A stretch of 64,000 bases of DNA from Candidatus Kapaibacterium sp. (GTDB lineage Bacteria; Bacteroidota; Ignavibacteria; Kapaibacteriales; HRBIN21): contig CALKEU010000001.1 in the NCBI GenBank assembly GCA_938084565.1, positions 202,131 to 266,130 of the forward strand, in the 5' to 3' direction. The notes beneath the pieces were generated by a model, which did no database searches, was not told the origin of the DNA, and was given only the letters and a program-made list of their open reading frames with translations. How positions within the stretch are numbered: the first letter of the stretch is position 1; every line of letters starts with the position of its first letter. Made by a program: the position numbers and the translations under genes. This document shows, in pieces, positions 84 to 55,537 of the stretch.

Positions 84-629
84 ATGCCAAGTCTTCCCCT
101 GCATGAGCAGACATGGTATGCCGCCGCCAGGGCCTACTACCTACTCCATTCATCTGTAAGCCCCTGTGACCAGGAGGAGGCCCAACGCTGGAGCCAGACT
201 CACCGGAGTCTCTACGACACGTTCATCACCTGCGTTGAAGAGGCTCACCGGCTGGCTTCGGCTGCTCTTCACTACGCCTGGGCGCCATATTCACGCTTCC
301 CGGTTGGAGCAGCACTCCTAGCCACCGACGGCAGTCTCTGGCAGGGCTGCAATGTAGAGTGCAGTAGCTTCGGCTTAACCCTCTGTGCCGAACGTGTTGC
401 CCTCGGACACGCCATCACGCACGGACGACGAGAGTTTGTGTTCTTAGCGCTCGTCACGGACACGGAAACCCCTCTCACCCCTTGTGGGGCGTGCCGTCAG
501 ATACTGTACGATTTCGCCCCCACCCTTCTCATCTCATCCCAAGGGGCTCGGGGGCAACGACGTGCCCTCTGGTGGCTCGACGAACTCCTACCCAGCCCGT
601 TTTCCGGCAAAGAGATCTGGAAACGTTAG
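84..629 (+). CDS. cdd: cytidine deaminase (with ~40-aa N-terminal extension)
   Basis: CDA zinc-binding motifs CAERVALGHAITHG and PCGACRQIL; also the AWAPYSRFPVGAALL core typical of tetrameric cytidine deaminases. Confidence 0.8.
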   Translation: MPSLPLHEQTWYAAARAYYLLHSSVSPCDQEEAQRWSQTHRSLYDTFITCVEEAHRLASAALHYAWAPYSRFPVGAALLATDGSLWQGCNVECSSFGLTLCAERVALGHAITHGRREFVFLALVTDTETPLTPCGACRQILYDFAPTLLISSQGARGQRRALWWLDELLPSPFSGKEIWKR

Positions 630-3600
630 CGCACAAGGCTGAGTGCACGCACCCATCGCCTTCCCCCTCCCTCTACGACGAGCCAGTACATGCCGCTGGG
701 CAGATGCTCGACCACAAGTTCGGTTGTGCCCTCAGCGACGGGCTGCCCGAGAATGGAGTAGAGCACGCTGCGTATCTGCCTCGGCTCAGCAGGCCATACG
801 AGAAGTCGCTGAGGGATCAGTGCTGACGGCAGCCACTGCAGTCTCAGCTCGCTTGCCTCTGGGCTACTATCGGCTATACCAACTGCGAGCCGCAACTGCG
901 CTGCTCGACTTGTGTCTCCCCCACACCGATTCCACACCACACATTGGTACCTTCCCGTGTCAGCCACCGACACCGCCGAGATACAGTACACCGTATCCCG
1001 GGCACCTGCTATAGGCACGCCGTCCTTGAGCCACTGGTACTGGCGCATGAGGCCTCCGGCTGCTGCTACCACAAAGCAGACTCGTTCGCCGGGCCTACCC
1101 TCAATATCCTGAGGCTGTTGTACGATCTGAGGACGCTCTTCGAGGAGGACATGGGTAGTGCGACTTGAGAGCTCCGGCGGGCATAGCCCACGTATGCGCA
1201 CGCTATACGCCCCTGCCTGCGCCAAGCTCGTTATCGCCAAGCGCAAGGTTGGCTGCCGCGCCCCGGGGATTTCGCTCCCTGAGCGGTACCACTGATAGCT
1301 TAGCGAATCCCCCGTAGCGCCGACGCTCAAGACGAGGGTGTCTCCCACACACAGCCTCACTGTATCCGGAGGCTGCTGCGTAATGCTGGGAGGCTGTACG
1401 ATGGTAAAGGCTGAATCGGTCTGGCTCCGTAGCCCTGTGACAGCGTGTACAACACGCAGCCAGTACCGACCGGCCGGCTGCGTCACAGGGATCGACCACG
1501 TGTAACTGGTGCCTGTCGTTGTAGCCAGCAATACCCACTGCTGCCCATCTGTGCTGAGCTCAATCCGGAATGTATCCCCCGCCGCTGTCCCTGACGAGAG
1601 CCATGAAATCGAAACGCTCGAACCTGCGCAGAAACGCTCACCCCCACGCGGGCTGAACATCGTCAGAGTGGCCCGCACGTATTTGAGCAGAAATGCGTCC
1701 GTTGCACCTCCACCGTACCCCGTCTGAAAGCCGCTTCCAGCCATAGCACACAGGCTCGCAGAGTTTGTCTCGCCCGCAATATAGAGATCGCCTCGCGCAT
1801 CAAGGACAGCGCTCAGCGGACGTTCATCGAGCAGTGTGCCGAGAAAGCTGCTGTAGCCCAGCTGTAAGGGCATCAGATCGGGGAAGACGGTGATGAAGAT
1901 GTCCTGCCCCCCTGCCAGCCTCCGACTGTGGGCATCCTGCGTTACGGGGAAGTTGCCCGAGCGAGTCCACCCAATGACGATGGGGGCATTGGAGTATTCC
2001 AACACGATGCGTGGCTCCTCATCGCTAGTCCCCCCCAGGAAGGTGGAGTACATAAGCGCCGCTGTCCCCAGCCCAGAACTTGAAAACCGACATAGGAAAG
2101 CATCCAAGCCACCAGCCAGCTGCTGCTGGTACGGCGGACCAGTAACGGGGAAGTTCGCCGAACGGGTGGCACCAACTACCCAGACCTCCCCGTTGCTGCG
2201 AGCCACAATGCCCGTTGCATAATCTTCCTGATTTCCCCCGAGAAAGGTGCAGTACTGCAGTGTCGCACTCGTGGGACGGAATTTGGCCACGAATGCATCG
2301 CGCGGACCACCGTTGTAGTCCCGGTCGTAGGGGCGGTTGCCGGGATTTGTGAATGTTGGCACGGGGTAGTTGGGGAAGTTAGACGAGGAGGTCTCCCCAC
2401 AGACATAGGTGTAACCGCTTGCGTCGGTATAGACCCCCCATGCTGTCTCGTTATCCGAGCCCCCCAGAAAAGTTGAAAAGCTCAACGATGCCCCTGTATT
2501 GCTCACCCCTGTGACGAACACATCCCAATTCCCGGCATACGTGCGTTGGTATGCCGCAGAAGTCGTCGGATAATTCGACGACTGCGTCCGTCCAACCAAG
2601 ACCACGATCCCATCCGGCCGCACAGAACCCGCCGTAGCAATGTCATCACTGCTGCCCCCGACGTATGTCGACCACCGCAGTACAGCTCCGGTAGACAACA
2701 AACGTGTGACAAACAGATCGGCGCCCCCACGCAACTGCTGTTGATACGCATTCCGGATAGGAAAGTCAGGCGAATTCGTCGTACCCGCTACCAGAATTTC
2801 ACCGTCCGCCTCCAGGCCAACGACGACCGGGAACTCCGATCCGCTGCCCCCGAGATATGTTGCAAAGAGCAAGCGGTGCAGTGTTGGATCGAACTTGAGC
2901 ACGACCGCATCCGTCAGCCCGTTATAGGTTGTATCGTATGCCCCCGGGGTCATACGGAAGGCGAGTTCTTCGGCCTGAACGACCGTCAAAATACTTCCAT
3001 CGGGCAGGCGCTGTAGCGAAGGAGCTCGCTCATCGGCCCCAGAGCCAACACAGGTACCATAGACGACCGGGTCGATGATGAGCGGGTACCGTGAATCGTA
3101 CGTACCGAGAGCAAAGCTCACATAGTAGGTGCCAGACTCAGCTGGTTCGAGCTGGAATTGAACAGGGATGGGGATGGTGTACCCTCCGATCTCTTGGTAA
3201 GCCTGTAGGTTGGCATGGGAGAGCACGAGCCCTCGAGTTCCAAAGAGCCGAAGCTCCGTGCCGTTGGCAGCAAGGGTAGCAGCCGTTGCGCCGACCAACC
3301 GCAGTCGGATATGGTGAGGATTAGCTCCTGGCCGTATGATGAAGTCGTAACGTACCCCTTCCGGCACCACCCGCAAGCGCAGATCGACGCCAGGGTAGAG
3401 CTCGCTGAGCTCCACCACGTGAGCCACAGGTACGGAACTCCGCCACCGCCGAGGCGAGTTGCCTCGGAAGAAGTGCAGCGCTACATCTTCGATACGCTGC
3501 GCCCGGGCCAATGCTGGGGTTGCCCCCTCAGCAATGAGCCAGATGACTTCTCCACGGCGGTGAATGCGCCTGCGCGGCAGTTCATAACGGTCTTGGCAGA

Positions 3601-3799
3601 GAAGCTCGACAGTCTGCTCATAAGCCTCGAAGACGAGGGCCGTCGGGAGGACGCCTACCGTCATCGAAGGCTGAGCCCAAACGTAGAGATAGGGAACGTC
3701 CCACTGTCCGTGATTCTCCACAAATCCTCGGACCCAGGGCAGGGGTAGCGCAAGAGCAGTACTGGCACTCAGGATAAGCACCCACAACACTCGGGTCAT
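626..3799 (-). CDS. T9SS-secreted SBBP beta-propeller-repeat / Ig-like repeat surface protein
   Basis: N-terminal signal peptide MTRVLWVLILSASTALALP. It carries many SBBP-type repeats (DAFV.KF / D.FVT.L ... FSTFLGGS ... NFP). Two or more I-set Ig-like segments follow (SYQWYRSG..., QYQWLKDGVPIAG...GRYQCVVWN). The C-terminus LPSGMYWLVVEGGGRRWVRALSLVR resembles a T9SS Por_Secre_tail CTD. Confidence 0.7.
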   Translation of the reverse strand: MTRVLWVLILSASTALALPLPWVRGFVENHGQWDVPYLYVWAQPSMTVGVLPTALVFEAYEQTVELLCQDRYELPRRRIHRRGEVIWLIAEGATPALARAQRIEDVALHFFRGNSPRRWRSSVPVAHVVELSELYPGVDLRLRVVPEGVRYDFIIRPGANPHHIRLRLVGATAATLAANGTELRLFGTRGLVLSHANLQAYQEIGGYTIPIPVQFQLEPAESGTYYVSFALGTYDSRYPLIIDPVVYGTCVGSGADERAPSLQRLPDGSILTVVQAEELAFRMTPGAYDTTYNGLTDAVVLKFDPTLHRLLFATYLGGSGSEFPVVVGLEADGEILVAGTTNSPDFPIRNAYQQQLRGGADLFVTRLLSTGAVLRWSTYVGGSSDDIATAGSVRPDGIVVLVGRTQSSNYPTTSAAYQRTYAGNWDVFVTGVSNTGASLSFSTFLGGSDNETAWGVYTDASGYTYVCGETSSSNFPNYPVPTFTNPGNRPYDRDYNGGPRDAFVAKFRPTSATLQYCTFLGGNQEDYATGIVARSNGEVWVVGATRSANFPVTGPPYQQQLAGGLDAFLCRFSSSGLGTAALMYSTFLGGTSDEEPRIVLEYSNAPIVIGWTRSGNFPVTQDAHSRRLAGGQDIFITVFPDLMPLQLGYSSFLGTLLDERPLSAVLDARGDLYIAGETNSASLCAMAGSGFQTGYGGGATDAFLLKYVRATLTMFSPRGGERFCAGSSVSISWLSSGTAAGDTFRIELSTDGQQWVLLATTTGTSYTWSIPVTQPAGRYWLRVVHAVTGLRSQTDSAFTIVQPPSITQQPPDTVRLCVGDTLVLSVGATGDSLSYQWYRSGSEIPGARQPTLRLAITSLAQAGAYSVRIRGLCPPELSSRTTHVLLEERPQIVQQPQDIEGRPGERVCFVVAAAGGLMRQYQWLKDGVPIAGARDTVYCISAVSVADTGRYQCVVWNRCGGDTSRAAQLRLAVGIADSSPEASELRLQWLPSALIPQRLLVWPAEPRQIRSVLYSILGQPVAEGTTELVVEHLPSGMYWLVVEGGGRRWVRALSLVR

Positions 3800-41883: not shown

Positions 41884-42573
41884 TTAGGGCCGCACCCATA
41901 GGAGAGGCCTCCACCGTCCCTCCTCCCAGATGAACCCTACGTATACCCCAGAGGCTCCCCGCTCAGGCACTACGTCCCCAGCCCAGCAGAGCCGTCCCGT
42001 GAGGTCGTAGAGCACAATACGCCGGGCCAATGGGAGCCCTTCTCGACCTTCGGGGACCGATACTGGCCCAAAGCGGTACCAGACCGTGAGAACAAACTCT
42101 TCGAGGAACTCGTTGGTAATGACCCCCTGCTGTTGCTCTCCAAACGGAATCCGCACGAGCGTCCCGGTAATGCGATCACTCACTACGGCCGAGTCAACGT
42201 GCTCGGGCAAGGGGTGGTTCCACTGGAGCACGATTGTGCGTCCTCGCCCGCGTTGGACTACGAAACGGTATGCCACCGCGAAGGTATCCTGTCTCCGCAA
42301 TGGGCGAAAATCTACGTAGCTCCACTTCCACTCACCCTCAATGGAGTCGTAAAAGCGTAAGGCGGCATGGAAGATGTCCTGGGGCGGGTGGAAAGGTGGG
42401 ATTTCCCGCTCACCGAGTGCGGTATCGATCCCGTCGGTAGCTCGCTCATCTACCCCAACCACAAGTCGGATCCGCTCTCCTAATTCGTTCCCGACAGTAA
42501 AAGGGAGTTCGACGCGAAGCTGCGCCGCCGCAGTGCACACAATGCTAAGACTGATCACCGTATGCCGCCACAT
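41884..42573 (-). CDS. small T9SS-CTD secreted protein, paralogue of an internal module of the 1027-aa neighbour
   Basis: Signal peptide MWRHTVISLSIVCTAAAQ. It shares the motif VGVDERATDGIDTALGE with GLGIRATDGVDTLFGE in the 1027-aa protein. The C-terminus GVYVGFIWEEGRWRPLLWVRP is CTD-like. Confidence 0.55.
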   Translation of the reverse strand: MWRHTVISLSIVCTAAAQLRVELPFTVGNELGERIRLVVGVDERATDGIDTALGEREIPPFHPPQDIFHAALRFYDSIEGEWKWSYVDFRPLRRQDTFAVAYRFVVQRGRGRTIVLQWNHPLPEHVDSAVVSDRITGTLVRIPFGEQQQGVITNEFLEEFVLTVWYRFGPVSVPEGREGLPLARRIVLYDLTGRLCWAGDVVPERGASGVYVGFIWEEGRWRPLLWVRP

Positions 42574-42658
42574 TCCACCCACAGGTTGCCCACGGACAAC
42601 AAAACTGGGTGGTAGCCCTAGCGGACCACCACCCAGCACGTGAAGGCTTCAGCGTGTT

Positions 42659-45600
42659 TTAGCGGACCACTGAAACGGGCACCACAGTTCTTCGCTCGCC
42701 CGCTGCTGCCCGCAACAGATACCGTCCGCTCGACAGAGCTTCTACTGGGAGCAAGAATGTGTGCGAACCAGCGGCGAGCTCACCCTCGTACACTCGCATC
42801 ACCTCTTCACCCATCAGGTTGTAAAGTGTGAGCACAACCGGGGCTGCCTCTGGTACAACGAGTGTGACCGTTGCGCGCTCGAGCACCGGCTGCGGCCTCA
42901 CTTCAACCCGAAATTCAGTGCCTGCAGGAACACTCAGCAGCTGGACTGCCGTTACATTTGGATCTGTGATCTGCACCTGGTTCTGCCCACTGAGCGTTCC
43001 CCACACACGTCCGGAGGCATCAACAACGGTATACTCCGTTGCGCCACTCCCTAGGTGCAGAGTCACGGGGTACTGCACACCCTGGAATCGGATCACCGGC
43101 GAGGCGGCATCCTCCACGTAGGTCCCACTCCCGAAACGGACATCGAAGATTCCCTGTGGAGGCAGCGGTGGCAACTCGAACCGCTCCCGATCGATCGGCT
43201 GCTGACTGAGGTAGAGAATCGCCTCCCTCCCAGCCGCATCGCGCACGGCCACTGGGGCACTCTGCTGCACCACGTACTCCCGGTACTCGTCCCGATAGGC
43301 CGTCGCACGCGGCGTGCCAGGAGCCTCCAGCTTGAGGTAGCCCCTGCCCCGAATCTTGATCCAATACCCTAAGCCGGGGGTCAACTCTGAGACTTCCATG
43401 AAACCACGATCCGGCTCGTATTTGTACACACCCCCGACCCGCTGTGGTAGTGGCTCAGCACCATAGTTCTCGAACTGAATCCGCTCAATGCTTACAGGAA
43501 CCGATAGCCCACCGATAGTATTCCACCCATCGTAGAGCAGCACATTGTCGTTCCGGTCTATCCGAAGCAGACGAACACCCGCAATCTGGCGATCCACGGA
43601 ATCGCTATACTTGACGTAGTAGCCGTAGCCCACCTGGAGGTTTTCCGAGGCCTGATACTGGTTCTGCGAGAACCAGAAGGGGATATTGATAGCCCGCGGA
43701 TAGACCATCCGCCAGTGAGGATTCGCCGGCCGCACTGGCAGCGAGAGCAAGTTCCACCCTTTTCGGATGACAGGATACTGGACGACGAGCGGATACGTGT
43801 ACTCGATGACAAACGAGCGGATCCGGGCATCCGTGATCGTATAGGACATCCGCGTACCCCCTGCCGGGGTTGCCTGCCGCATATCGACACCAAAGATCAA
43901 GCCGTTGAGTGTATCTCGCAAGAAGAGGCGCGCCCCTGCTGGAAAATCTGTCGTATCCCACGTCAGTACCACGGGGTAATTCGGAGCCCCACCGGCATCG
44001 AAGCGGCACAGAAAGACCACGGTTGAATCGGAAAACACATTGCGAATGTCACGCGAAGCATAGATCCCTACCAAGTCCCGCAATCCATACGGCGCAGTAC
44101 CTGGCGGGACATTGGCTACCCCGTCGAGATACCAGCGCGCATAGAAGCTCCCCGCCACTGGCGGATTATCATACACCGTCTCTCCAAAGAGAGTGTCGAC
44201 TCCGTCTGTTGCGCGAATCCCCAACCCAAAGACCAGTGTTGCTGACTGTGGAATTGCAGCCGAGTTGCTCACCGTGATCCGGATTCCCCGGCCCAGGACC
44301 GCTAGATTACGGGGATCATTGTTCGGCTCCACAGGGTTCCGCACGTAGATAAATGTTACCCGCAAGCGCACCGGTGATACCGACGCAGAGAGGCTGCGGA
44401 ATGTAATGTAGCCAACGTAAATACCTGCCGCATCTATGTTCTGGGGCAACTCCTGCGGATCACAGAGAATTCGGAAATTCTGAGGACGTGACGGGGATTG
44501 TGGGTTGTTTTGGATGTCTTGGAGAATGGTCTCACCGAGCGTCCGATCGATGTAATCAATCACTCCCCGGCGTGTGATAGTCGGGATGGGGTTTCGGTCG
44601 CCGGGGCCAGCAGCAAAGGTCTGAAACTTAAGCCACCGTGCGTTAGACTCCACCACGATATCCGTCAATCGCGTACCCTCCACCTCGTTAGTTACCACTA
44701 ATTCCCGCCGTCCGAAGAAGACCCCTCGCGTCCACGAAGCCGAATCCAACACAATGGGATGAATGACTTCCCACTCATCGCCAGAGAGAGAAACTTGTCG
44801 AACAACTGCGTCAACCCCTATCCGTGGTTCAAAGCCCATCTGCGGAACACTCGTGACAAGGACGTAGATCATGCCCGGCATACTCGGATAGAGATTGGCA
44901 ATTGGCAGCAGACCGCGATTGTCAACCCCCTCTAATCCCTCATACGACACATTCCCGGAAGCCCCACCGGTACGATATGTTACAAAGTCCCGATACCGTG
45001 ATCCCACTGAATTAGCTGGGAAGGGTTCCGCAGGAAAAACGCTCAGGTTGAGATCGTTGTACTTCAGCGTGTCGTTGGAGAGTATCAACCGTGCAACCGA
45101 ACCCTCAGGCCCCGTTACCCGGAACCGTAAGTACACAACCGGAACATACTGCCGGTTATCACACTGAATAGTTGGATCCCACGGATCCTGTCCCAGTCCA
45201 GCAGGGCTCGGAGGCAGTGGTTTTGCAGAGCTAGCAACAATGCGGATTCGACGGGGATCGAAGACTGGGGGAACGCTCCCCAGGTTGTGCCATGCAACGA
45301 GTGCTCCTAACATATCCTGAGATGTGATCGCAACATCATCGAAGGCAAACGTGAAATCCTTTGCTAAAACGCTATCACCCGCTGGACTGACCTTTTGGAG
45401 CCCCAGAAACTCCAAGAAGCGCCCATCGTACTTGAGTTTGAATTCGAAACTGTAGATCGGCCACACCTGTCCCCACACAGGGTGGGTTGTAGGAACCCAA
45501 CAGTTTCGGATGTAGACTGGAACCAACAACTCCCGTGGCTGCCGTGGATCTGCTTGTTGAGGTACCACGATAAAGCCCGCAGGATAGACTTGCGCATCGT

Positions 45601-45742
45601 ACCCTGGGCCGCTGCCTGTCAAACTAAGCACCGGCAGTTTCACGTCGACCGTCTGTCCCCACAGCAGGGGGCTTCCGGCGAGGATAATACCTACAGCCAC
45701 TGTCCACAGAGATACCCACTGTCGCATTGCCTCTCTCCTCAC
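42659..45742 (-). CDS. large T9SS-secreted protein with N-terminal cohesin-like module
   Basis: Signal peptide, then a cohesin-like beta-sandwich pattern (LLVPVYIRN...IYSFEFKLKYDGRFLEFLGLQKVSPAGDSV). The C-terminus VLTLYNLMGEEVMRVYEGELAAGSHTFLLPVEALSSGRYLLRAAAGERRTVVPVSVVR is a T9SS CTD. Confidence 0.6.
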   Translation of the reverse strand: MRREAMRQWVSLWTVAVGIILAGSPLLWGQTVDVKLPVLSLTGSGPGYDAQVYPAGFIVVPQQADPRQPRELLVPVYIRNCWVPTTHPVWGQVWPIYSFEFKLKYDGRFLEFLGLQKVSPAGDSVLAKDFTFAFDDVAITSQDMLGALVAWHNLGSVPPVFDPRRIRIVASSAKPLPPSPAGLGQDPWDPTIQCDNRQYVPVVYLRFRVTGPEGSVARLILSNDTLKYNDLNLSVFPAEPFPANSVGSRYRDFVTYRTGGASGNVSYEGLEGVDNRGLLPIANLYPSMPGMIYVLVTSVPQMGFEPRIGVDAVVRQVSLSGDEWEVIHPIVLDSASWTRGVFFGRRELVVTNEVEGTRLTDIVVESNARWLKFQTFAAGPGDRNPIPTITRRGVIDYIDRTLGETILQDIQNNPQSPSRPQNFRILCDPQELPQNIDAAGIYVGYITFRSLSASVSPVRLRVTFIYVRNPVEPNNDPRNLAVLGRGIRITVSNSAAIPQSATLVFGLGIRATDGVDTLFGETVYDNPPVAGSFYARWYLDGVANVPPGTAPYGLRDLVGIYASRDIRNVFSDSTVVFLCRFDAGGAPNYPVVLTWDTTDFPAGARLFLRDTLNGLIFGVDMRQATPAGGTRMSYTITDARIRSFVIEYTYPLVVQYPVIRKGWNLLSLPVRPANPHWRMVYPRAINIPFWFSQNQYQASENLQVGYGYYVKYSDSVDRQIAGVRLLRIDRNDNVLLYDGWNTIGGLSVPVSIERIQFENYGAEPLPQRVGGVYKYEPDRGFMEVSELTPGLGYWIKIRGRGYLKLEAPGTPRATAYRDEYREYVVQQSAPVAVRDAAGREAILYLSQQPIDRERFELPPLPPQGIFDVRFGSGTYVEDAASPVIRFQGVQYPVTLHLGSGATEYTVVDASGRVWGTLSGQNQVQITDPNVTAVQLLSVPAGTEFRVEVRPQPVLERATVTLVVPEAAPVVLTLYNLMGEEVMRVYEGELAAGSHTFLLPVEALSSGRYLLRAAAGERRTVVPVSVVR

Positions 45743-45761
45743 GGAGCAAATTCAACAGACT

Positions 45762-46901
45762 TCATTCCACAATGAAGGCCACGGGGAGCTGTGCTCCCCC
45801 GATTCGTTGCCATCGTCCAACGTATATACCTGTAGGTAGCCCTTGAAGGGACACCTCGAACGGCTTCCCTTCGGCATGTACAGATCGCAGGAGCCTACCT
45901 AGGACATCGTAGAGCTCCAGCCGTTCGCCCGGCTCTAGGTACAACAGGCCAGAAGGATACACCATCACCCTCTGGCAACGCTCGCTGACGGCTGAAGGCT
46001 GCGATGGCGCAGCCATCACTACCAAACTATCTCCTATCCAACGAGTAAGGCAAGCACACGGATCCAGGGGATAAGACAGAAGACGAAGGGTGACCGTATC
46101 CGCCCACTGTATGCGGGCAGACAATTCCACGATAAGCTCGGACCTCTCCCGCTGGGAAGTCCATTTTATGCTCAGTGTGTCGCCACTGCGCTCCCACGTT
46201 TGCAACTCAACACCTTCGCCTACAGCAATATTCTCTACCTGTAGCCACGACGGCAGACCCGTTATGACTGTTGCCACCGAACGGAGTTCCAGAGCTGGAG
46301 GACAGCCCACTTGCACTACCCACAAACACGAGGTATCCGTCCCCACTAGGTTGCACTCCCGCGTCAGACTTTGCGTCCACAGAGTACGGTCAGGCGTGTC
46401 AACGATACGGGCATAGACGATTACAGGCGTTGTATCAACCTGCACCACCCGCCTCCGTTCGAACTCTTCGTTGAATTCCACATACTTCAGTTGAATGACA
46501 GCCGTATCAGGACACTCCCGACGATAATCTCCAAGGAAGGCCACCAACGGCTTCGCCCCAGAGATTCGTCGTGTGAGCGTGAATGCATATGCCCGAATCT
46601 CGCCATACAGCGCACTAAAGGCTCGCTGTTCCATTCCTTCTGCCAACGTACCGCTGACTAGCATCGTATGGAAGGCAAACTTCTCTGGATTGTACTGTAT
46701 GGCAAGATTGAAGCCCATCAAGCTGTCCGTTGGCTGTACTGGACTGATCTCAACGATCAAGATACACTCGCGTCTCCCGCACACATCTACCGTATCCCAG
46801 ACCCGCAGGGCAAGCCGTGCTGTCGTCTGGGCTATGAGCTGCCCCATGCCGCACAGAGCCATCACTATCCATGATGGTAAGCATGCCCTGCAGGACATCA
46901 T
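45762..46901 (-). CDS. T9SS-secreted protein with N-terminal cohesin-like module
   Basis: ALRVWDTVDVCGRRECILIVEISPVQPTDSLMGFNLAIQYNPEKFAF follows the cohesin pattern V.V.....G..V.V.I....V.....G..F.L...YDP..L. The C-terminal CTD is LELYDVLGRLLRSVHAEGKPFEVSLQGLPTGIYVGRW. Confidence 0.6.
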   Translation of the reverse strand: MMSCRACLPSWIVMALCGMGQLIAQTTARLALRVWDTVDVCGRRECILIVEISPVQPTDSLMGFNLAIQYNPEKFAFHTMLVSGTLAEGMEQRAFSALYGEIRAYAFTLTRRISGAKPLVAFLGDYRRECPDTAVIQLKYVEFNEEFERRRVVQVDTTPVIVYARIVDTPDRTLWTQSLTRECNLVGTDTSCLWVVQVGCPPALELRSVATVITGLPSWLQVENIAVGEGVELQTWERSGDTLSIKWTSQRERSELIVELSARIQWADTVTLRLLSYPLDPCACLTRWIGDSLVVMAAPSQPSAVSERCQRVMVYPSGLLYLEPGERLELYDVLGRLLRSVHAEGKPFEVSLQGLPTGIYVGRWQRIGGAQLPVAFIVE

Positions 46902-46907
46902 ACCCCA

Positions 46908-48788
46908 TTAACGCAGCACCACGATTGGTTCGAGCTCTCGGATACCTGTTGGACCTTCAATCCGGCACATATACATGCCCGGGCTGACCCGCTCGCCGAG
47001 CCCGTTCGTCCCATCCCACTCTACCTCGTAGGAACCGCTCGAATACTCCGCATCAGCAAGTGTCCGTACATAGCGGCCCATGGCGTCATAGAGGAGCACC
47101 CGATATCGCCCCGCCTCCGGTACATGGAGTCGGATGGCTGTCCGATCAATAACGGGGTTGGGGGCAACATGGCCTACCGTCGTCGGAGCTGCTGTGACAG
47201 CCAGCGGCACTACGAGCTCAGGCAGCTCTTCGTCATTCAAGCGGACATTGCTTACCCGCAGCTGAGCATCTTCTACGCGCAGCGTCACATACAGTATCGG
47301 CTCCCCCGCCTCACACTCTATCACACCCGCAATCGCCATACGCCCAGCGTCGTAGGCAACCGTCAGCCTGTCTGCAAAGCGCGGTGCAATCTCAACTCCA
47401 CTGATGACCCCATTGAATTGTACTCGAATACCCAGTGCTCCTGCCCAGGCTCCGTTGAGGGCGATGGGGAAGCGATATACTCCAGGAGCACTACTGTGCG
47501 GTTGCGCAATGTGGAGATTCGAGGCAATACCTGCAGCTGCTGCCCCCCGACCGTATGGTGGGAGTACTGTCAAATCCAGCAGCCACGGCAGATACGGCAC
47601 ACGGCCCGCCATGTAGAGCATGATGATGGCTGCATCATACTCCGTAGCCTCGAAAAAGAGAATAGGATCACCTCCAACATAGGGGAGCGAGTTATCCTGT
47701 GGGAGGTCCTGCCAGTAGTAGAGCGATCGTGTCGGTATAGCGCGTCGATGGTAGGCTGTATCAGCTGTATTGTTCCAGTTGCGTGTAGAGTAGTAGTAGC
47801 GCCCGTTGTGGTTGACGTCTCCATGGTATGCCTGGCGCCCTTTGAGGCTATCGAGACGCCGATCTGTTGCTACAGAGCGCAGGATGAGCATTACATCGTT
47901 CACTGTCACAAACCGGTCTTGTCCCATCCCGGTGTGCTTTCCCACTTGGGAGAAGTCTACATCTCCGTCGCCCCACCCTTCCAGGAAGAGCCGAGGGATG
48001 GCATTGAAGCGAATAACTGTATCACTTCCCCCCGAAGGTTGCCATGTGCTACTCAATACCGTAGAGGTAAGTGCCTGATTGACATCGCCAGTGAAGACCA
48101 AGCCATTCAGATAGTCACCAAATCCCCCCTTGATACCAATCGCTGCACCCTGTACCTGAACTGGTCCCCCCGAGGCCGTCAAACCGTAAGCAAACTCAAT
48201 ATCACCCTGGAAATTCCCCGGCCGCGAAGATTCATACAGCCACACTTGGAAACTGGCGATACTGGATGGCAACGACGGGTTGTTAATGTTCAAATCCCTC
48301 CACTCCACCACGAACGCCCGATTCGGGGCTGATCCCACCACTTTGTACGAGATCCGCGAAGGAACGTACCCCGGTTGAGTCGTCCGATAGTAATGGTCAC
48401 CCCAGAAGGGGGCAATGACGTTGAAAGGTTCAGAATTGACGAAGAGCCGCCCCGGAATATTCCCGCCCGTTAACGGAGGAGTCTCCCCGGTACGTAGCAA
48501 CAAGACGAATCCATTGACAGAGATTGCTAGTCTGCTGTACCGATAGCCCTGATACTCGAAGAGGAAAGGGAGTGCCACAATGGCGTAGCCGTCATTGTGA
48601 TCAGGGTTCCCGGTTGCTGGATCTACGAACTGGTCCGCATCCAGCACCGTTGCTCCCGCCAGCAAGGTAAAGGGTTTTCCTCCGACTTTGACAGCAGGCT
48701 GGAACTCGGCATAAACCTGGGATCTTGCGGCAATTGCACCGCTGAGCAGTAACGCCACAACACCCCCGATCAGCGTCAGCATTCTCAT
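46908..48788 (-). CDS. T9SS-secreted protein with dockerin-like Ca-binding loop motifs
   Basis: Signal peptide MRMLTLIGGVVALLLSGAIAARSQ (ATG at 48786-48788 preceded by GAGGAGA). It has two dockerin-like segments, GDGDVDFSQVG...VTVNDVMLILRSVA and GDVNHNGRYYYS...TADTAYHRRAI. The C-terminal CTD is YRVLLYDAMGRYVRTL...GMYMCRIEGPTGIRELEPIVVLR. Confidence 0.6.
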   Translation of the reverse strand: MRMLTLIGGVVALLLSGAIAARSQVYAEFQPAVKVGGKPFTLLAGATVLDADQFVDPATGNPDHNDGYAIVALPFLFEYQGYRYSRLAISVNGFVLLLRTGETPPLTGGNIPGRLFVNSEPFNVIAPFWGDHYYRTTQPGYVPSRISYKVVGSAPNRAFVVEWRDLNINNPSLPSSIASFQVWLYESSRPGNFQGDIEFAYGLTASGGPVQVQGAAIGIKGGFGDYLNGLVFTGDVNQALTSTVLSSTWQPSGGSDTVIRFNAIPRLFLEGWGDGDVDFSQVGKHTGMGQDRFVTVNDVMLILRSVATDRRLDSLKGRQAYHGDVNHNGRYYYSTRNWNNTADTAYHRRAIPTRSLYYWQDLPQDNSLPYVGGDPILFFEATEYDAAIIMLYMAGRVPYLPWLLDLTVLPPYGRGAAAAGIASNLHIAQPHSSAPGVYRFPIALNGAWAGALGIRVQFNGVISGVEIAPRFADRLTVAYDAGRMAIAGVIECEAGEPILYVTLRVEDAQLRVSNVRLNDEELPELVVPLAVTAAPTTVGHVAPNPVIDRTAIRLHVPEAGRYRVLLYDAMGRYVRTLADAEYSSGSYEVEWDGTNGLGERVSPGMYMCRIEGPTGIRELEPIVVLR

Positions 48789-48838
48789 CGTCTCCTCATC
48801 CGCGTGTGAGACCTGTTTGTTCTTGTCACACAAGGAGA

Positions 48839-48872
48839 GGGAGCTTTCCTGCCTGTCAGGCAGGAAGCTCCC
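48839..48872 (-). terminator. intergenic stem-loop (14-bp stem, 5-nt loop) 10 nt downstream of the 2208-aa gene stop; candidate intrinsic terminator/attenuator or RNA-stabilising hairpin
   Basis: GGGAGCTTTCCTGCC-TGTCA-GGCAGGAAGCTCCC forms a near-perfect inverted repeat with one bulged T. On the minus-strand transcript it is followed by CUCUCCUUGUGUG, which is only moderately U-rich. Confidence 0.45.
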
Positions 48873-48881
48873 CCACTCTTA

Positions 48882-51800
48882 TTACCGCACTAGGACCATT
48901 GGCTGGACGAGCACCACGTCGCCAGCAGTGATCCGGTAGTAGTACACACCACTGGGGACTTCTACACCGTTAGCGCTTCTTCCGTTCCACGGTACAATGT
49001 ACTCGTTAGCCGGGTAGAAGCCCTCCAGCAGCGTAGCAACCTGCGTACCGAGAGCATCGTACACTTCGAGCCGTATAGTAGCTGGCTCCGTCAGGCGGAA
49101 GCGAATCTGAGTTGTCTGCTCAAATGGATTAGGAGTATTTCCGAGCAGCTGCACTGGACCAGCCGCAGCAGCCACCGGCTCGGGCACATCGCTAATGAAG
49201 TCATACACGATCACAAAGTTCGTGACGGCGTCGGTGTAAATGACAACCGAAAGCGAGTCGCCATTCCGCTCTAGGGTCACTGTGGGCACCGAACGTCCTT
49301 CACCCGTGCGCATATTGAAGCTAAAGATGTTCCCGTTGGAGGCGCCGTCACGGATATACCACGTCGACCCAGCAGGGTTACGCGCGGCATCGTTCCGGTC
49401 AGGAACATCTTGAGCACTCCACGTGATGCGCACAGGATACGCATCAGAGGCATTGCCGGTGACACTTCCCGCCTGGAAGCGCCCTTTGTAGATCGATTGC
49501 CCTTCAACACCAGCAACCGCCCGCGGAAAGATATTCCGCACCGTTCCATTCGTAGAAGCAATACTCCACCGAGCGTCGAAGACGTCGTTGGGTGGGATCG
49601 GCGGCAGCTCGTACTCGCAGTAGTTGGAATCCAACTTCCCGACGCCACCACGGTTCGGATCATCACCGGTGGTTGCCAGCGGCGCTGTTCCCCATTCGAG
49701 TACCTGGAAGGCCCCGAAGCGATTGCTAATCCGCATTGGGACAATGAAGTCTGTCGGATCGGACACGTTCAGCTTGTAGGAGATCTCGTGTTGTGCTCCC
49801 TGCCGATCCACGACTCGAACGCGGACGGTAACCTTGCCATCGGGCCCTGGGGTGGCATTCAGAGCTGCCGTGCTAATCAAAACCTTGACTGTATCGGAGG
49901 ACTGGGGACCGCTAATTGTAGCCGGGCTAACCTGGAAGCCCGCAGGCTCGACCACCTCGATTGTCAGCTGCTCGAGGGCATCCGGCGGCTCCCGACGCAG
50001 GAGATCACGGTCGATCACCAGAATGCTATCCACATAGGGTTTCCCAAGCTCAACACATCTTACTGCCGGCAGCTGTGCCAGCCGTGGCGGATGGTTTACT
50101 GCCCGCACATTGAGGTCGAGCACCTTCACGTGTGTCAGTCCGTACTCGTCCGTAACCAGAACGGTTACCTTCTCTCGACGCGGCGCATCGTAGACCCCTG
50201 GAGTGCCAAAGAGAAGCCCGCTGACCGGATCGATCTGGAGCCACCGCGGGGTGGTCTTCTTGTCGCGCAGATCCCACGCACCCGCCTCGGGGAAGCATGG
50301 ATCGCGTGGGACAAAATCACGTGGATCGCCGGGATAAATCAGCTCAAATTGATGTGCCTGCCCAAAGTTCGGATCGTACACGACTATGCGACGACTCGAA
50401 TCCAGCAGCGTCGGATTGTAGTCCTGGTCCTCTATGGCATCCGGCAGCGTAGAGGTGAGGATGGTGGGAGCTACGTTGACGAGAACTCGCCGCGTTAGAT
50501 AGTTGACTCCACCATGGCCATCATTCACTACGATGGAGACAACCGTGTCGGTGTTGAGTGCCCCATGGTGTTGCATTGGGGGTGTCAGCAGTTGCCATGC
50601 AGTGGCAGAATCAATCCTCACATTGAGCTGCCCACGGAGGCTGAAGTCGATCGCTAATGGATCGGGCTGCCCACTGTTATCGTAGCGCCGTAGGTACTGG
50701 TTGCTCATCCACACCGGACGTACCTGCGTTGCAGGCTCAACGACTGTATCTGGCGGCACATCCCGCAGACTAATCGAGGCAAAGCCATAGGTTGTGCGCC
50801 CATAGCGGAAGTCCCATCCACGAGCACCAGCGTCAGCATCTTCGAGCTCGTCATCGGTATCGATGTCAACTTTAAAGCGGAGGCTATCAGTCAAGTTCGC
50901 AAGCCAAACACCGTTTCGTTCGCAGGCTACGTTGAAGCCTGTAAACTGCGGCGTACTGTCGATGACGAAGATCCGGAACTGGTACGTCACCGTCGTCGCC
51001 CCCGTGTTACCATAGTCCACGGTATCCTGCTGCAAGAACCGAGCATTGCTGCCGTCGTACGCTTGCGCATTGAAGTACGGCGGATAGAGGTAGATGTACT
51101 TTGCGATGACCTCCTCACTCAGCCCAGCAGCCTTCAGGGAGTCAACGGTTCGGGCGCTGGGCGGGAAGTTGCGGACAGCCACCGTGACGATTTCTCCACC
51201 GGGAACCACAAACGGGTTTGTCGGTCGGCCCTTGAGCACAACGTAGCCTCGCGCTCCATAGTACGGACCAAACGTTGCCGGGAGCGTATCGGCCTGGAGC
51301 CAGTAGGAAAGCCCCGAACCAGGTGCAACACTCCAGAAGTACGCAAGCTGCGGATACCGATCGGGGAACATGACCGACCGCGGGTCATAGAAGAGGTTCG
51401 GGTCTACCGCAGTAATGGTAAAGATGGAATCCCGCCCTGGCCCCGTCGGCTGACGCGGATAGCTTACATCCTCAGTCAGGAAGATCATATTCCGCAACTC
51501 CGGTGGCGTGATATTCTCCAACGCCACCTTGTTCCCCGTGAACACTGGCGGGTCAACTGTTGCTCCTACCTCAAAGATGAGTGCTCCATTGATTGCATCC
51601 GCAACCGTCCCCTGCCACAGAACTGTACGGGAAACAACGGCAACGACATCACCGACTCGTACCGGAAGCGCATTGTACCGTTCGCCGGCAAATACTGTAA
51701 CCTTCTGAGGGCTAATTGCCCCATCGGTGGGGAGAATACGATTGACATACCCAAAGCCGGGGCCCCCCAACTCATTGACAAAGCCCTCATATTTCCGCCC

Positions 51801-54800
51801 TTGCAAAGCCGCTAGATCCTCAATGTCCGGCCGCCTCTGGAGTGCAGCAAGAATTGCTCCCAAGTTCGTCCCAATGTTGGCCAGCCCCTCGATCGTGCGC
51901 CGATCGGTCGGGCGGCGGTTTACAGAATCGGGAACTAGCTCGACACGTGCACGGAAGACCTCGTTCGTTGCTCCTATCTGGCGCAGATTGACCCGGATGT
52001 AGTCACCCGTGCTGGTATTGATGACAAAGAAGACCGTCTCGTTGATCGCTCGCGGGTCATTGTTATTGAGCTCTGCTGACCCTGTGTAATTAGCACGGGC
52101 TTCAAGGAAGAGCGGATAGCCGATCGGATGTTTCGTGCCGCGGAATTCTGTCTGCAGGGCAGCAATGTTCGGGTCAGCCTCTGCATCGAAGGGATTCCGG
52201 GTCCACCGCCGGACGTACTTCCCGAAGGAAGGCAGCGTGGGATCATTATATGTCCGCAGGGTTTTGGGAATACCGACGGCGAAGTCCTCGATTGGCGACA
52301 TCCGCCGGTTGGAGTAGTCCGCCGTCTTGATATCGGTCCCTTTGTCGAAGATATCGTAGATGTGCCCCTGCATCAGCAACCGCTCAGGGATACTCGCTGG
52401 GTCAGGTGTATTCTCATCCCCTGCGTTCAAAACCGGGATCGGGATATAGGTGTAAAGGTGTCGCGACTCAAAGGGGCCCTGATTCTTCCCCGTACCTCCA
52501 CGCACGAAGCCAAGCTGTCGCGTGCCGTCCCCAGCGACAAAGAAGGTCTCCTGCGTACGCCCACTGACAGGCAAAATCGTCACCACGTTGGCTTCGGTCC
52601 GTCCCCAGTAATTGCCCCGGAGCGTATCGATCCCACCCATGCCAACGCCAGTCCCTGCTCGGCCTCCCTTCGTATCGGGATAGTCCGGCAGGCGGATGAG
52701 AAACCGCGCCGCGTTATCGTAGATAGAGTTTGCAGCCCAGTGATAGCTTGCGTACGGCAGCGGTCCCACTACGTCACCATATAGAATTGCCCCCGCCAGG
52801 TCACTCGAGGCGAGATTTGTCCCCTGCACCAATGGCCCTGTAATGGCATTCTGCTGGGCGCCTATGTCAGAGGTCGCCGTGTTGTTCGTAATCAGGCTTC
52901 GCGTAAAGACCAACTGCAGATTGTAATTGTCCGAGTAGATTGCCGCACCGGTATAGGCACGGTTACCCTGAATGCGCACTCGGTTGAAGAAGACAGAATC
53001 TGTCCGCCCTGCACGGCTAATACTCACCTCGTCGAGCACGTAAATAGCTCCACCGAGCCCTGTGCCGTTCTCCCGCAAGGTTGTCCCCGGGTGCTGACGC
53101 CGAATGTCTCCAATCTGCGTCGTCCCCGATCCCATCTGCGCCATGTTCGGGATAGCTTCATTGTCAAAGAAGCGAGTCAGCATCCGCACATCCGCCACCG
53201 GTGCTCCGGGCGTCCACGTAAAGATGTCATCTCGAGAGCTAAACCCAACAGCCACCCCGTTCGGGAGAACAGTGATGTTATCGACATCAGTCAAGAAGAA
53301 CCGATGCGAGGACGTCTGAGGATGCACGATACAGACGGCACCACCGTTGCCATTATAGGCCTTATTAGCCCTGAACTCAACTCCTTTGACGACATTGAGA
53401 TCAGCGTTGAGCGTGTAAACGGCCCCACCACCACGCACCTGCGCCTCGTAGCCTTGCTGAACCTGTCCAACGATGTTATTAGTAAATACCGCTCGCACGA
53501 GCCATATATACCGTTGCTCGACGGGCAAACAATTGGGCGGCGGGCAAGGCAGCTGAGCTGCGATAGCACCACCCGAAAAGCCAGCCTCATTGTTGTCAAA
53601 CTCCACCGGATAGTTCCCTCCGTAGAGGGACAGAGGCCCTACCGTACCACCAGCCCCATAGACGGTGAAGTTCTTCCCCGAGAAGATCGCCCCACCGTGC
53701 TCGACAGCACGGTTATTGCGGAACTTGATGTTGTAGCCATAGTTACGCGTGTCAATGAGGGCATCCGAACCACCGATGACGGGCGACGGTCGCGTATCCA
53801 CACCTGCAGCCGCGACATAGATAGCTCCTCCACGCCCCGCTTGGTTATCCACGAAGTACGTCTCCTGGCGTGCCTCGCCTCCCTGGCGTCCGCGCACCTG
53901 GAGCCGACCGGCATTGGTGCCCACATAAATTGCCCCACCATGGGACAGCGCACCAATCTGGGTCGGATCGGTGAAGAAGGGAACCTCAGCCCTATTGCTG
54001 ACGAAGCGTCCACGGACTGTCACCGAGGTCGCCCCACCAACGTAGAGTGCCCCACCGCGTGCCCCTCCAGTATTCGGGTTGTTTTGGAGATTCCTTGCGC
54101 TGTTGCCGTCGAAGAAGACGTAATCATACACGTTCGGAGCCTCGTAGTCGTTTATCCCCAACCCAATCTCTAGCGGGGTTCGCCCAGCGATGTAGACCGC
54201 TCCACCGTAAGCTTGATTCTTCCAGCTCTGAGGCTCTAGAGGAGCAGGGTTATTGAGGTCATCGACGATCGCCCACACACCTGGGGCAATCTGCCGTAGT
54301 TCAACGCTCGAAAGCAGTACGCGGTTCCCCGTAAAGCTCAAATACCGCACCCGCCCCAACAGCACTGCTAGACGAGCATCATCGTAAGCCTGACGATCGC
54401 TGTTGGTCAACGGTTCTGAAGCAGCACTGTAGACTTGATCGATGGCCTTGACTGCTTGGGATATCGGAACCGCGGTTGCATTGTCCGTTAGGTACGGATT
54501 GATAGGGCCGTAATCCGGCAAGGCTGAAATACCCGGTGTCGGGTAAACTCCCGTTCCGACAGGCGCCTGGAGTAACTGGAGCGCCCCTCCCCGGTATCGC
54601 GCCATGTTATTCCGGAACTCGCACAGCAGGAGCCATGTACGCGAGGAGAAGCTCGTGATGACCCCACCGCTGCCGTTAGTCTGCTGGATGAGCTGTGCAT
54701 TCAGGGCGGCAATAGCACCAGTGTTGGGTTGATAGATCGGGAAACGGTCCACCGTCGTATCCTTCCGGAAGTTCTCGAAGACTACGTTCCGGAAGAAGGC

Positions 54801-55466
54801 CGCCCGTGCTCCCGGCAGGATGATGATGTGCCCCCATTCTCGGGAAAAGTTGTTGACCGGACGCCCTCGGAAGGTAATTACACCCTGCGTCACATTGATG
54901 TTCCCGCCCCCCGCACGCCGCCACGGTGTTTGGTTGATATTCGGGTCAGAACCCGCAAAGGCCAGGCGCGCCGCGGCGTACATAATAGCCTTGCCCGGTG
55001 GCAGGTTCTGCAACCGCGGATCTGATCCGAGGTCCACCAAGAATATCTCTCCATACTTGCTTGGGTCAATCGTCGGATCCCCGACAATGGTACTTACAGC
55101 AGCAGCGCTGAAGTAGTTGAGGTCAGCATAGCCTGTGTAACCACATGGGTTGTTGGGATCCACCGGGTTGCAGCCACCAGGGAATTGGTTATAGGTTGCC
55201 GAGACGTATCCATCGGCGATGATGCGGCCGCCTACGGAGTCTATGAGGCGTCCGTTAGGCAGGAACTCCACAATGGTCCCGGGCTCAATGATGAGCGTCC
55301 CGGCAATCATGTATGTCCCGCTGATGCGGTATAGCGTATCCTTCAGGAAAATCCGGACCTCATTTGGGCCCAGACGCCCACTGACTTCCACAACGGGCAG
55401 CTGCGCACGGCTTACACCTGCAGCCAGGATCCCCACAAGAGCGACAAGGTGCAACCACCGCTTCAT
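48882..55466 (-). CDS. giant (about 2190-aa mature) T9SS-secreted parallel beta-helix protein with Pmp-type (GGAI / FxxN) repeats and cadherin/Ig-like domains
   Basis: Signal peptide MKRWLHLVALVGILAAGVSRAQ (ATG at 55464-55466, 4 nt after GGAGGAA). It has many GGA[IVL]Y/F..N repeats (HGGAIYVGTNAG, RGGAIYVAAAG, EHGGAIFSGKNF, FSGGAIAAQ, GLGGAIYVLDE). The C-terminal CTD is IRLEVYDALGTQVATLLEGFYPANEYIVPWNGRSANGVEVPSGVYYYRITAGDVVLVQPMVLVR. Confidence 0.7.
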   Translation of the reverse strand: MKRWLHLVALVGILAAGVSRAQLPVVEVSGRLGPNEVRIFLKDTLYRISGTYMIAGTLIIEPGTIVEFLPNGRLIDSVGGRIIADGYVSATYNQFPGGCNPVDPNNPCGYTGYADLNYFSAAAVSTIVGDPTIDPSKYGEIFLVDLGSDPRLQNLPPGKAIMYAAARLAFAGSDPNINQTPWRRAGGGNINVTQGVITFRGRPVNNFSREWGHIIILPGARAAFFRNVVFENFRKDTTVDRFPIYQPNTGAIAALNAQLIQQTNGSGGVITSFSSRTWLLLCEFRNNMARYRGGALQLLQAPVGTGVYPTPGISALPDYGPINPYLTDNATAVPISQAVKAIDQVYSAASEPLTNSDRQAYDDARLAVLLGRVRYLSFTGNRVLLSSVELRQIAPGVWAIVDDLNNPAPLEPQSWKNQAYGGAVYIAGRTPLEIGLGINDYEAPNVYDYVFFDGNSARNLQNNPNTGGARGGALYVGGATSVTVRGRFVSNRAEVPFFTDPTQIGALSHGGAIYVGTNAGRLQVRGRQGGEARQETYFVDNQAGRGGAIYVAAAGVDTRPSPVIGGSDALIDTRNYGYNIKFRNNRAVEHGGAIFSGKNFTVYGAGGTVGPLSLYGGNYPVEFDNNEAGFSGGAIAAQLPCPPPNCLPVEQRYIWLVRAVFTNNIVGQVQQGYEAQVRGGGAVYTLNADLNVVKGVEFRANKAYNGNGGAVCIVHPQTSSHRFFLTDVDNITVLPNGVAVGFSSRDDIFTWTPGAPVADVRMLTRFFDNEAIPNMAQMGSGTTQIGDIRRQHPGTTLRENGTGLGGAIYVLDEVSISRAGRTDSVFFNRVRIQGNRAYTGAAIYSDNYNLQLVFTRSLITNNTATSDIGAQQNAITGPLVQGTNLASSDLAGAILYGDVVGPLPYASYHWAANSIYDNAARFLIRLPDYPDTKGGRAGTGVGMGGIDTLRGNYWGRTEANVVTILPVSGRTQETFFVAGDGTRQLGFVRGGTGKNQGPFESRHLYTYIPIPVLNAGDENTPDPASIPERLLMQGHIYDIFDKGTDIKTADYSNRRMSPIEDFAVGIPKTLRTYNDPTLPSFGKYVRRWTRNPFDAEADPNIAALQTEFRGTKHPIGYPLFLEARANYTGSAELNNNDPRAINETVFFVINTSTGDYIRVNLRQIGATNEVFRARVELVPDSVNRRPTDRRTIEGLANIGTNLGAILAALQRRPDIEDLAALQGRKYEGFVNELGGPGFGYVNRILPTDGAISPQKVTVFAGERYNALPVRVGDVVAVVSRTVLWQGTVADAINGALIFEVGATVDPPVFTGNKVALENITPPELRNMIFLTEDVSYPRQPTGPGRDSIFTITAVDPNLFYDPRSVMFPDRYPQLAYFWSVAPGSGLSYWLQADTLPATFGPYYGARGYVVLKGRPTNPFVVPGGEIVTVAVRNFPPSARTVDSLKAAGLSEEVIAKYIYLYPPYFNAQAYDGSNARFLQQDTVDYGNTGATTVTYQFRIFVIDSTPQFTGFNVACERNGVWLANLTDSLRFKVDIDTDDELEDADAGARGWDFRYGRTTYGFASISLRDVPPDTVVEPATQVRPVWMSNQYLRRYDNSGQPDPLAIDFSLRGQLNVRIDSATAWQLLTPPMQHHGALNTDTVVSIVVNDGHGGVNYLTRRVLVNVAPTILTSTLPDAIEDQDYNPTLLDSSRRIVVYDPNFGQAHQFELIYPGDPRDFVPRDPCFPEAGAWDLRDKKTTPRWLQIDPVSGLLFGTPGVYDAPRREKVTVLVTDEYGLTHVKVLDLNVRAVNHPPRLAQLPAVRCVELGKPYVDSILVIDRDLLRREPPDALEQLTIEVVEPAGFQVSPATISGPQSSDTVKVLISTAALNATPGPDGKVTVRVRVVDRQGAQHEISYKLNVSDPTDFIVPMRISNRFGAFQVLEWGTAPLATTGDDPNRGGVGKLDSNYCEYELPPIPPNDVFDARWSIASTNGTVRNIFPRAVAGVEGQSIYKGRFQAGSVTGNASDAYPVRITWSAQDVPDRNDAARNPAGSTWYIRDGASNGNIFSFNMRTGEGRSVPTVTLERNGDSLSVVIYTDAVTNFVIVYDFISDVPEPVAAAAGPVQLLGNTPNPFEQTTQIRFRLTEPATIRLEVYDALGTQVATLLEGFYPANEYIVPWNGRSANGVEVPSGVYYYRITAGDVVLVQPMVLVR

Positions 55467-55537
55467 GATTCCTCCACCACCTAGAGACCACTTGTCAGAA
55501 GAGTGCATGAGTTCACCACAGCTTGGACGAACATATA

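Follow-up and report, generated by a model that had tools for sequence, protein, structure and literature searches.

The closest described counterparts of the system considered here are the type I cohesins of cellulosomal scaffoldins and anchoring proteins, the cohesins found outside cellulosomes, a scaffoldin-like protein of Cloacimonadota, and the type-A cargo of type IX secretion systems (T9SS). We compare them with two adjoining minus-strand open reading frames (ORFs) at positions 42659-46901 of a 64,000-nucleotide stretch of Candidatus Kapaibacterium sp. (contig CALKEU010000001.1), which is referred to throughout as the window. The ORF listing gives proteins of 1027 aa (GTG start) and 379 aa. 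An earlier note, made from the sequence alone, had described the two as T9SS cargo proteins with cohesin-like modules, and both are found at this place with the strings that it quoted.

With respect to the cellulosomal type I cohesins (A. cellulolyticus ScaC Coh3, 4UYP; C. thermocellum OlpA 3UL4, OlpC 4DH2, CipA 1OHZ/1ANU), the window modules are 8-20% identical. They also differ in host and anchorage (a Gram-negative Bacteroidota, with a T9SS C-terminal sorting domain (CTD) in place of S-layer homology (SLH) domains or sortase), in copy number (a single N-terminal copy, not tandem arrays) and, in the case of the 1027-aa protein, in size, as its module carries about 130 extra residues in the form of an N-terminal extension, an inserted helix and long loops. 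In those parts of the window that were scanned, there was no sign of dockerin-bearing enzymes or of carbohydrate-binding modules (CBMs).

Outside cellulosomes, cohesin-like modules have been recorded in all domains of life (Peer et al. 2009, as cited in PMC6487960 and PMC8542988). Those of A. fulgidus (2XDH) and of C. perfringens NanJ, NagJ and NagH (2VO8, 2W1N, 2O4E, 2JH2) are recognized by sequence models and have dockerin or dockerin-like partners, whereas the window modules are unannotated: where members of the two families bear a public name, it is 'hypothetical protein' or 'T9SS type A sorting domain-containing protein' and in no case cohesin. In Cloacimonadota ('Ca. Stygibacter') a scaffoldin-like protein combines tandem cohesins with a conserved C-terminal surface-attachment domain, for which a T9SS review is cited (PMC8542988). 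The likeness to the window proteins lies in cohesin modules joined to a conserved C-terminal attachment domain within the FCB (Fibrobacteres, Chlorobi and Bacteroidetes) superphylum. The Cloacimonadota protein, however, has many InterPro-detectable cohesins together with CBMs, in a genome with dockerin-bearing enzymes, while in the window each of two proteins bears one highly divergent module, inside a block of five cargo genes without recognizable enzymes or dockerins. Finally, T9SS type-A cargo proteins (P. gingivalis RgpB CTD, 5HFS/5AG8; Flavobacterium CTDs, 8GLK/8GLJ) share with the window proteins a sorting domain some 70-80 residues long, to which the family profiles match, but the passenger domains of the latter are unrelated to characterized proteases, glycosidases and SprB-type adhesins.

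Predicted structure of the N-terminal modules

An AlphaFold2 (AF2) model of residues 28-300 of the 1027-aa protein, calculated from a 19-sequence alignment without templates, is confident (mean predicted local distance difference test score, pLDDT, 81; predicted template-modelling score, pTM, 0.83). Core strands of this region include ELLVPVYIR, YSFEFKLKY and LEFLGLQ, and an inserted helix and long loops are also present. When the model was compared with the PDB by Foldseek, ranks 1-39 were all cohesins (E 9e-6 to 1.6e-3, probability 0.99-1.00), with a target-normalized TM of about 0.5. For residues 24-178 of the 379-aa protein, with 12 input sequences, the model is of moderate confidence (pLDDT 69, pTM 0.68). 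The models predict a cohesin beta-sandwich (jelly-roll) of about 140 residues in the N-terminal modules, and the proposal that such modules follow the signal peptides is supported at fold level, confidently for the 1027-aa protein and moderately for the 379-aa protein. The further label of 'type I', which the earlier note had attached to them, is unsupported.

Several sequence comparisons are consistent with this assignment. Twelve of the 82 members of the extended 379-aa family match Pfam Cohesin (best E 2.3e-5), and matches persist when N-domain-only fragments are rescanned (7 of 45, best E 2.8e-5), so that they sit within the homologous N-domain. As an example, residues 46-134 of the relative P0066 align to positions 16-107 of the Cohesin profile (PF00963) with 11.9 bits, against a gathering cutoff of 24.1 bits; among the ten 379-family members guessed to be Cohesin carriers, only P0066 matched. 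A profile of the N-domain of the 1027-aa family, run against the whole PDB, has as its top match a cohesin, that of C. thermocellum OlpC (4dh2_A, E 0.019), and this alignment pairs 'dPIkSFefklqYdssalravgvqkvg' with 'HGIQSFNLSLYYDSKAIEVLKVEPGS', the motif singled out in the earlier note. Alignment of the two families to each other with hhalign places RELLVPVYI...IYSFEFKLKYDGRFLEF on RECILIVEI...LMGFNLAIQYNPEKFAF with a probability of 33%. None of these links is decisive alone, and all point to the same family and register. Other comparisons gave no signal: the N-domain profile of the 379-aa family had no cohesin match in the PDB, phmmer of both window proteins against all PDB sequences gave no match, and BLASTP detected no similarity between the two N-termini.

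A number of observations weigh against the assignment. Neither window protein matches Pfam Cohesin at E<=10, an outcome that the earlier note had itself named as one that would count against its claim, and the profile is matched by 0 of the 21 members of the 1027-aa family. Identity of both modules to solved cohesins is low, as stated above; two of the five models of the 379-aa module are near 44, against the 69 of the model used; and beta-sandwich adhesin domains of other kinds (PrgB Ig-like, CLIPPER, pilins) trail the cohesins by 2-3 Z units only. A minor rival explanation runs as follows: the modules would be no homologs of cohesins at all, but generic immunoglobulin (Ig)-like or pilin-like beta-sandwich adhesin domains, superposed in the AF2 models by convergence or model bias. 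This explanation appears improbable to us. The window proteins fail sequence-level membership of Pfam Cohesin; the fold-level support stands. We conclude that the modules are probably very remote relatives of both cellulosomal and non-cellulosomal cohesins, lying below Pfam detection and belonging to two separate unannotated families.

Sorting signals

A T9SS type-A CTD on both proteins is established at the family level, and the two are probable T9SS cargo, as the earlier note had proposed. The 1027-aa protein scores 24.1 bits with NCBIfam TIGR04183 (cutoff 23) and 16.1 bits, below cutoff, with Pfam PF18962; PF18962 matches 17 of the 21 members of its family (best E 2.3e-13). The 379-aa protein itself is below cutoff with both models (TIGR04183 16.3 vs 23; PF18962 12.3 vs 27), but 57 of the 82 members of its family match PF18962, and the profile of this family matches CTDs from solved structures of T9SS cargo (8glk_D at E 3.2e-7, 8glj_D, RemZ and gingipain CTDs). 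At the other end, both proteins and their homologs have by eye a signal-peptide-like N-terminus, with a basic n-region, a hydrophobic core and a small-residue cleavage-like site.

The public calls of near-identical homologs begin later than the ORFs used here: P0013, a homolog of the 1027-aa protein, has 1022 aa and begins at Met6, and P0001, a homolog of the 379-aa protein, has 366 aa and begins at Met14, 13 codons downstream, which shortens its signal peptide. The longer starts give fuller signal peptides in both proteins and agree with the orthologs.

After export, T9SS CTDs are cleaved off, and the C-terminus that this creates is tethered to the outer membrane. If this established biology applies to the two window proteins, they would be exported, trimmed and anchored in the same way; since the anchor would be C-terminal, the N-terminal cohesin-fold module would come to lie at the distal tip, away from the cell surface.

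The two protein families

Homologs of the 1027-aa protein form 26 clusters at 31-100% identity, most of them with PF18962. The N-terminal 270 residues or so are conserved in the family alignment, with lineage-specific loop insertions; a word-seeded profile search with this domain added only two further family fragments and no distant relatives. The middle of the protein (about 650 aa) is beta-rich and uncharacterized, and no Pfam domain apart from the CTD was found in the protein. Within this middle, residues 489-617 resemble the core (residues 47-162, RATDGIDTALGE...) of the 251-aa protein encoded downstream, as seen both by BLASTP (E 0.001) and by hhalign (probability 79%, E 1.6e-5, 110 columns). 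On these alignments the internal domain is a predicted homolog of the core of the 251-aa protein.

Close homologs of the 379-aa protein form only 12 clusters, without Pfam annotation, and a scan of species-representative genomes placed this close family only in Kapaibacterium-type and hot-spring metagenome-assembled genomes (MAGs), at four Kapabacteria loci. Their first 155 residues contain about 50 invariant positions, including DSL.G.NL, GTL.E, CPDT and EFNEEFER. An exhaustive HMMER search with the N-domain profile widened the family to 235 representatives at E<=1e-3 (164 at E<=1e-10), nearly all of 350-410 aa and with the domain at the N-terminus. Cys41 and Cys130 of the N-domain are invariant or nearly so, a pattern that suggests a disulfide. 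The CxC of the middle region (Cys282, Cys284) is nearly invariant across the extended family. In the comparison of the family profile with the PDB, this middle region (residues 179-309) gave insignificant matches only, to the C. perfringens cohesin 2vo8_A (E 0.16) and to LM2379 (9n30_A, E 0.14); a second beta-sandwich may lie here. Within Kapabacteria the 379-aa protein is the fastest-evolving: its identity is 41-55%, as compared with 83-89% for the 2208-aa protein encoded upstream and 72-84% for the 1027-aa protein in the same genome pairs (loci L001-L006). The cohesin-fold domain itself holds at 60-74%, and the variation sits in the middle region and the CTD.

A conserved block of five cargo genes

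The two genes are part of a co-directional run that encodes, in order, a tetratricopeptide repeat (TPR) protein of 241 aa and proteins of 2208, 641, 379, 1027 and 251 aa. The last five are consecutive T9SS-type cargo genes and are considered here as a block (Table 1). The 2208-aa protein has Pfam matches to Chlam_PMP (7.5e-15), He_PIG, FlgD_ig and CHU_C; the 641-aa protein has a CTD of the FlgD_ig type; and the 251-aa protein ends in what looks like a T9SS CTD, which Pfam does not pick up in the copy of the window, PF18962 being detected in some of its orthologs.

Table 1. Features of the two genes and of their surroundings, in window coordinates.
Feature	Coordinates	Strand	Evidence
Gene for 1027-aa secreted protein: putative signal peptide, predicted cohesin-fold N-region, middle, T9SS CTD	42659..45742	-	ORF; 26 homolog clusters
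Putative Sec signal peptide, 1027-aa protein, residues 1-30, MRREAMRQWVSLWTVAVGIILAGSPLLWGQ	45653..45742	-	Read by eye; position kept in family alignment
Predicted cohesin-fold N-region, 1027-aa protein, residues 28-300	44843..45661	-	AF2 model
Internal domain, 1027-aa protein, residues 489-617, contains RATDGVDTLFGE	43892..44278	-	BLASTP and hhalign vs 251-aa protein
T9SS type-A CTD, 1027-aa protein, residues 950-1027	42662..42895	-	TIGR04183, PF18962
Gene for 379-aa secreted protein: putative signal peptide, predicted cohesin-fold N-domain, CxC middle region, T9SS CTD	45762..46901	-	ORF; homologs
Putative signal peptide, 379-aa protein, residues 1-25	46827..46901	-	Read by eye
Predicted cohesin-fold N-domain, 379-aa protein, residues 24-178	46368..46832	-	AF2 model, family alignment
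Middle region, 379-aa protein, residues 179-309, with nearly invariant Cys282 and Cys284	45975..46367	-	Alignments
T9SS CTD, 379-aa protein, about residues 310-379	45765..45974	-	Family-level PF18962, PDB profile matches
Five-gene cargo block (2208, 641, 379, 1027, 251 aa)	41884..55508	-	
2208-aa T9SS cargo protein with Chlam_PMP repeats (beta-helix adhesin-like), first in block	48882..55508	-	Pfam, syntenic orthologs
641-aa T9SS cargo protein, upstream, second in block	46908..48833	-	FlgD_ig 2.7e-7, weak Por_Secre_tail, syntenic orthologs
Nearly invariant block in 641-aa protein, residues 285-432	47538..47981	-	Orthologs
251-aa secreted protein, downstream, fifth in block, CTD-like tail (LYDLTGRL...GVYVGF)	41884..42639	-	ORF, orthologs
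1057-aa probable surface protein	626..3799	-	DUF7948 and immunoglobulin domains

The order of the block is the same in five Kapabacteria loci, wherever the locus spans it; a sixth, on a short contig (L003), shows only the orthologs of the 641-aa and 379-aa proteins. Through 1027-family members with 31-43% identity, four distant genomes were identified in which the five cargo genes again stand in this order; each neighbour was verified as an ortholog, with identities to the window proteins of 42-55% (2208 aa), 33-43% (641 aa), 22-33% (379 aa), 32-40% (1027 aa) and 23-32% (251 aa). Altogether the block is seen in loci L002 and L004-L010, orthologs of the 251-aa protein occupy the same position in 9 other loci, and syntenic orthologs of the 2208-aa protein range from 42 to 89% identity. 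Both cohesin-module genes are co-inherited with the three other T9SS-type cargo genes. Genes for GT2/GT9 glycosyltransferases often come after the block. In the literature searched we found no description of this five-gene block, nor of cohesins in Kapabacteria or Ignavibacteria.

The flanks are of housekeeping type (among others E1 dehydrogenase, GatB, aminotransferase, arginine decarboxylase, GH77, Lnt and a MiaB-like radical-SAM enzyme), and the GC content of the window is even, at about 0.55-0.61. A mobile-element or horizontal origin of the cluster was rejected in view of these two features and of the kept synteny with E1 dehydrogenase, S21 and GT2. The nearest public homologs of both proteins carry the names of Candidatus Kapabacteria or Bacteroidota MAGs, and Kapaibacterium belongs to Bacteroidota in the NCBI taxonomy; the host of both genes is a hot-spring Kapabacteria-type bacterium of this phylum. 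Elsewhere in the window there is a further large probable surface protein (last row of Table 1).

Search for a docking partner

On the basis of known cohesin function, a cohesin-fold module would offer a protein-protein docking surface, and we lean towards the view that both genes encode surface proteins with a Sec signal peptide, a cohesin-fold N-terminal module and a type-A T9SS CTD, whose modules dock cargo partners in a surface complex. Such docking would help to gather the co-encoded cargo proteins into one complex, probably adhesive, and the partner of the modules would be something other than a canonical dockerin, probably within the co-encoded set.

Searches in the window speak against this view in several respects. 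Pfam Dockerin_1 matches none of four cluster proteins at E<=10, the 2208-aa protein having been scanned at E<=0.01 only; when the long ORFs of the window were all scanned with a regular expression (regex), none turned out to contain a canonical 12-residue dockerin Ca-loop; and no T9SS machinery (PorK/L/M/N, SprA, PorU/V) was recognized among the window ORFs scanned. Because neither Pfam nor the regex scan found a dockerin, it is from the fold alone that we infer a docking function.

The main rival explanation starts from the dockerin searches, to which a profile comparison with the PDB adds another result without a dockerin. According to it, the modules have the cohesin fold but dock no protein, acting instead as a ligand-binding domain (for a glycan or a mineral surface, for example) or as a rigid tip or spacer on surface adhesins. 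The adhesin-like character of the neighbours (PMP repeats, He_PIG) is in line with such a role, and for many cohesin-like modules outside cellulosomes no partner is known (Peer et al. 2009, as cited in PMC6487960 and PMC8542988). On the other hand, those structural matches that are functionally characterized cohesins all bind a protein module, no CBM or lectin is found among the top structural matches, and the strict co-inheritance of the five cargo genes is more in keeping with an assembly of several proteins. We regard a role without protein docking as rather unlikely, and continue to favour docking within a surface complex.

As to where a partner might be sought, the sole match to D[IVL][ND].[DN]G in the long ORFs of the window is DVNHNG in the 641-aa protein. 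Residues 285-432 of this protein form a nearly invariant block with two units of an Asp/Asn loop plus an amphipathic helix (WGDGDVDFSQ...VTVNDVMLILRSVA and HGDVNHNGRYYYS...EATEYDAAIIMLYMAGR), which by eye look like a duplicated dockerin with insertions, and the block residues are still invariant in orthologs of just 33-43% identity. Four tests by sequence gave no support for this region as a dockerin (PF00404): there is no Pfam match at E<=10, no PDB dockerin is found by phmmer or by a six-ortholog profile, and both putative loops are broken by insertions. A bolder proposal would nonetheless make the five-gene block a T9SS-anchored surface machine held together by cohesin-type docking, in which the modules bind this block (WGDGD.D.S...VT.ND..IL / H.DVNH.GR..Y...EYDAA.I..Y) as a highly derived, insertion-bearing dockerin. 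We consider it a long shot; if true, scaffoldin assembly would have a Gram-negative counterpart outside the cellulosome.

Implications

Since both the module class and the type of architecture are known, the finding is a new, very divergent member of the cohesin class; it adds to a known type of module and does not amount to a system of a new kind. As it stands, it is an improvement in annotation rather than a conceptual surprise; cohesin-like modules outside cellulosomes are known to occur widely. Two families that have so far carried only uninformative or sorting-domain names, one of them with at least 235 representatives at 50% identity, can now be annotated at fold level as cohesin-like. 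The deeply conserved block of five T9SS cargo genes in Kapabacteria and related Bacteroidota/Chlorobi-group lineages stands out as a candidate for a surface assembly of several proteins. Should the modules indeed dock proteins, new orthogonal docking pairs would be expected, and the assembly logic of the cohesin type would reach T9SS-anchored Gram-negative surfaces, beyond the single metagenomic inference in Cloacimonadota.

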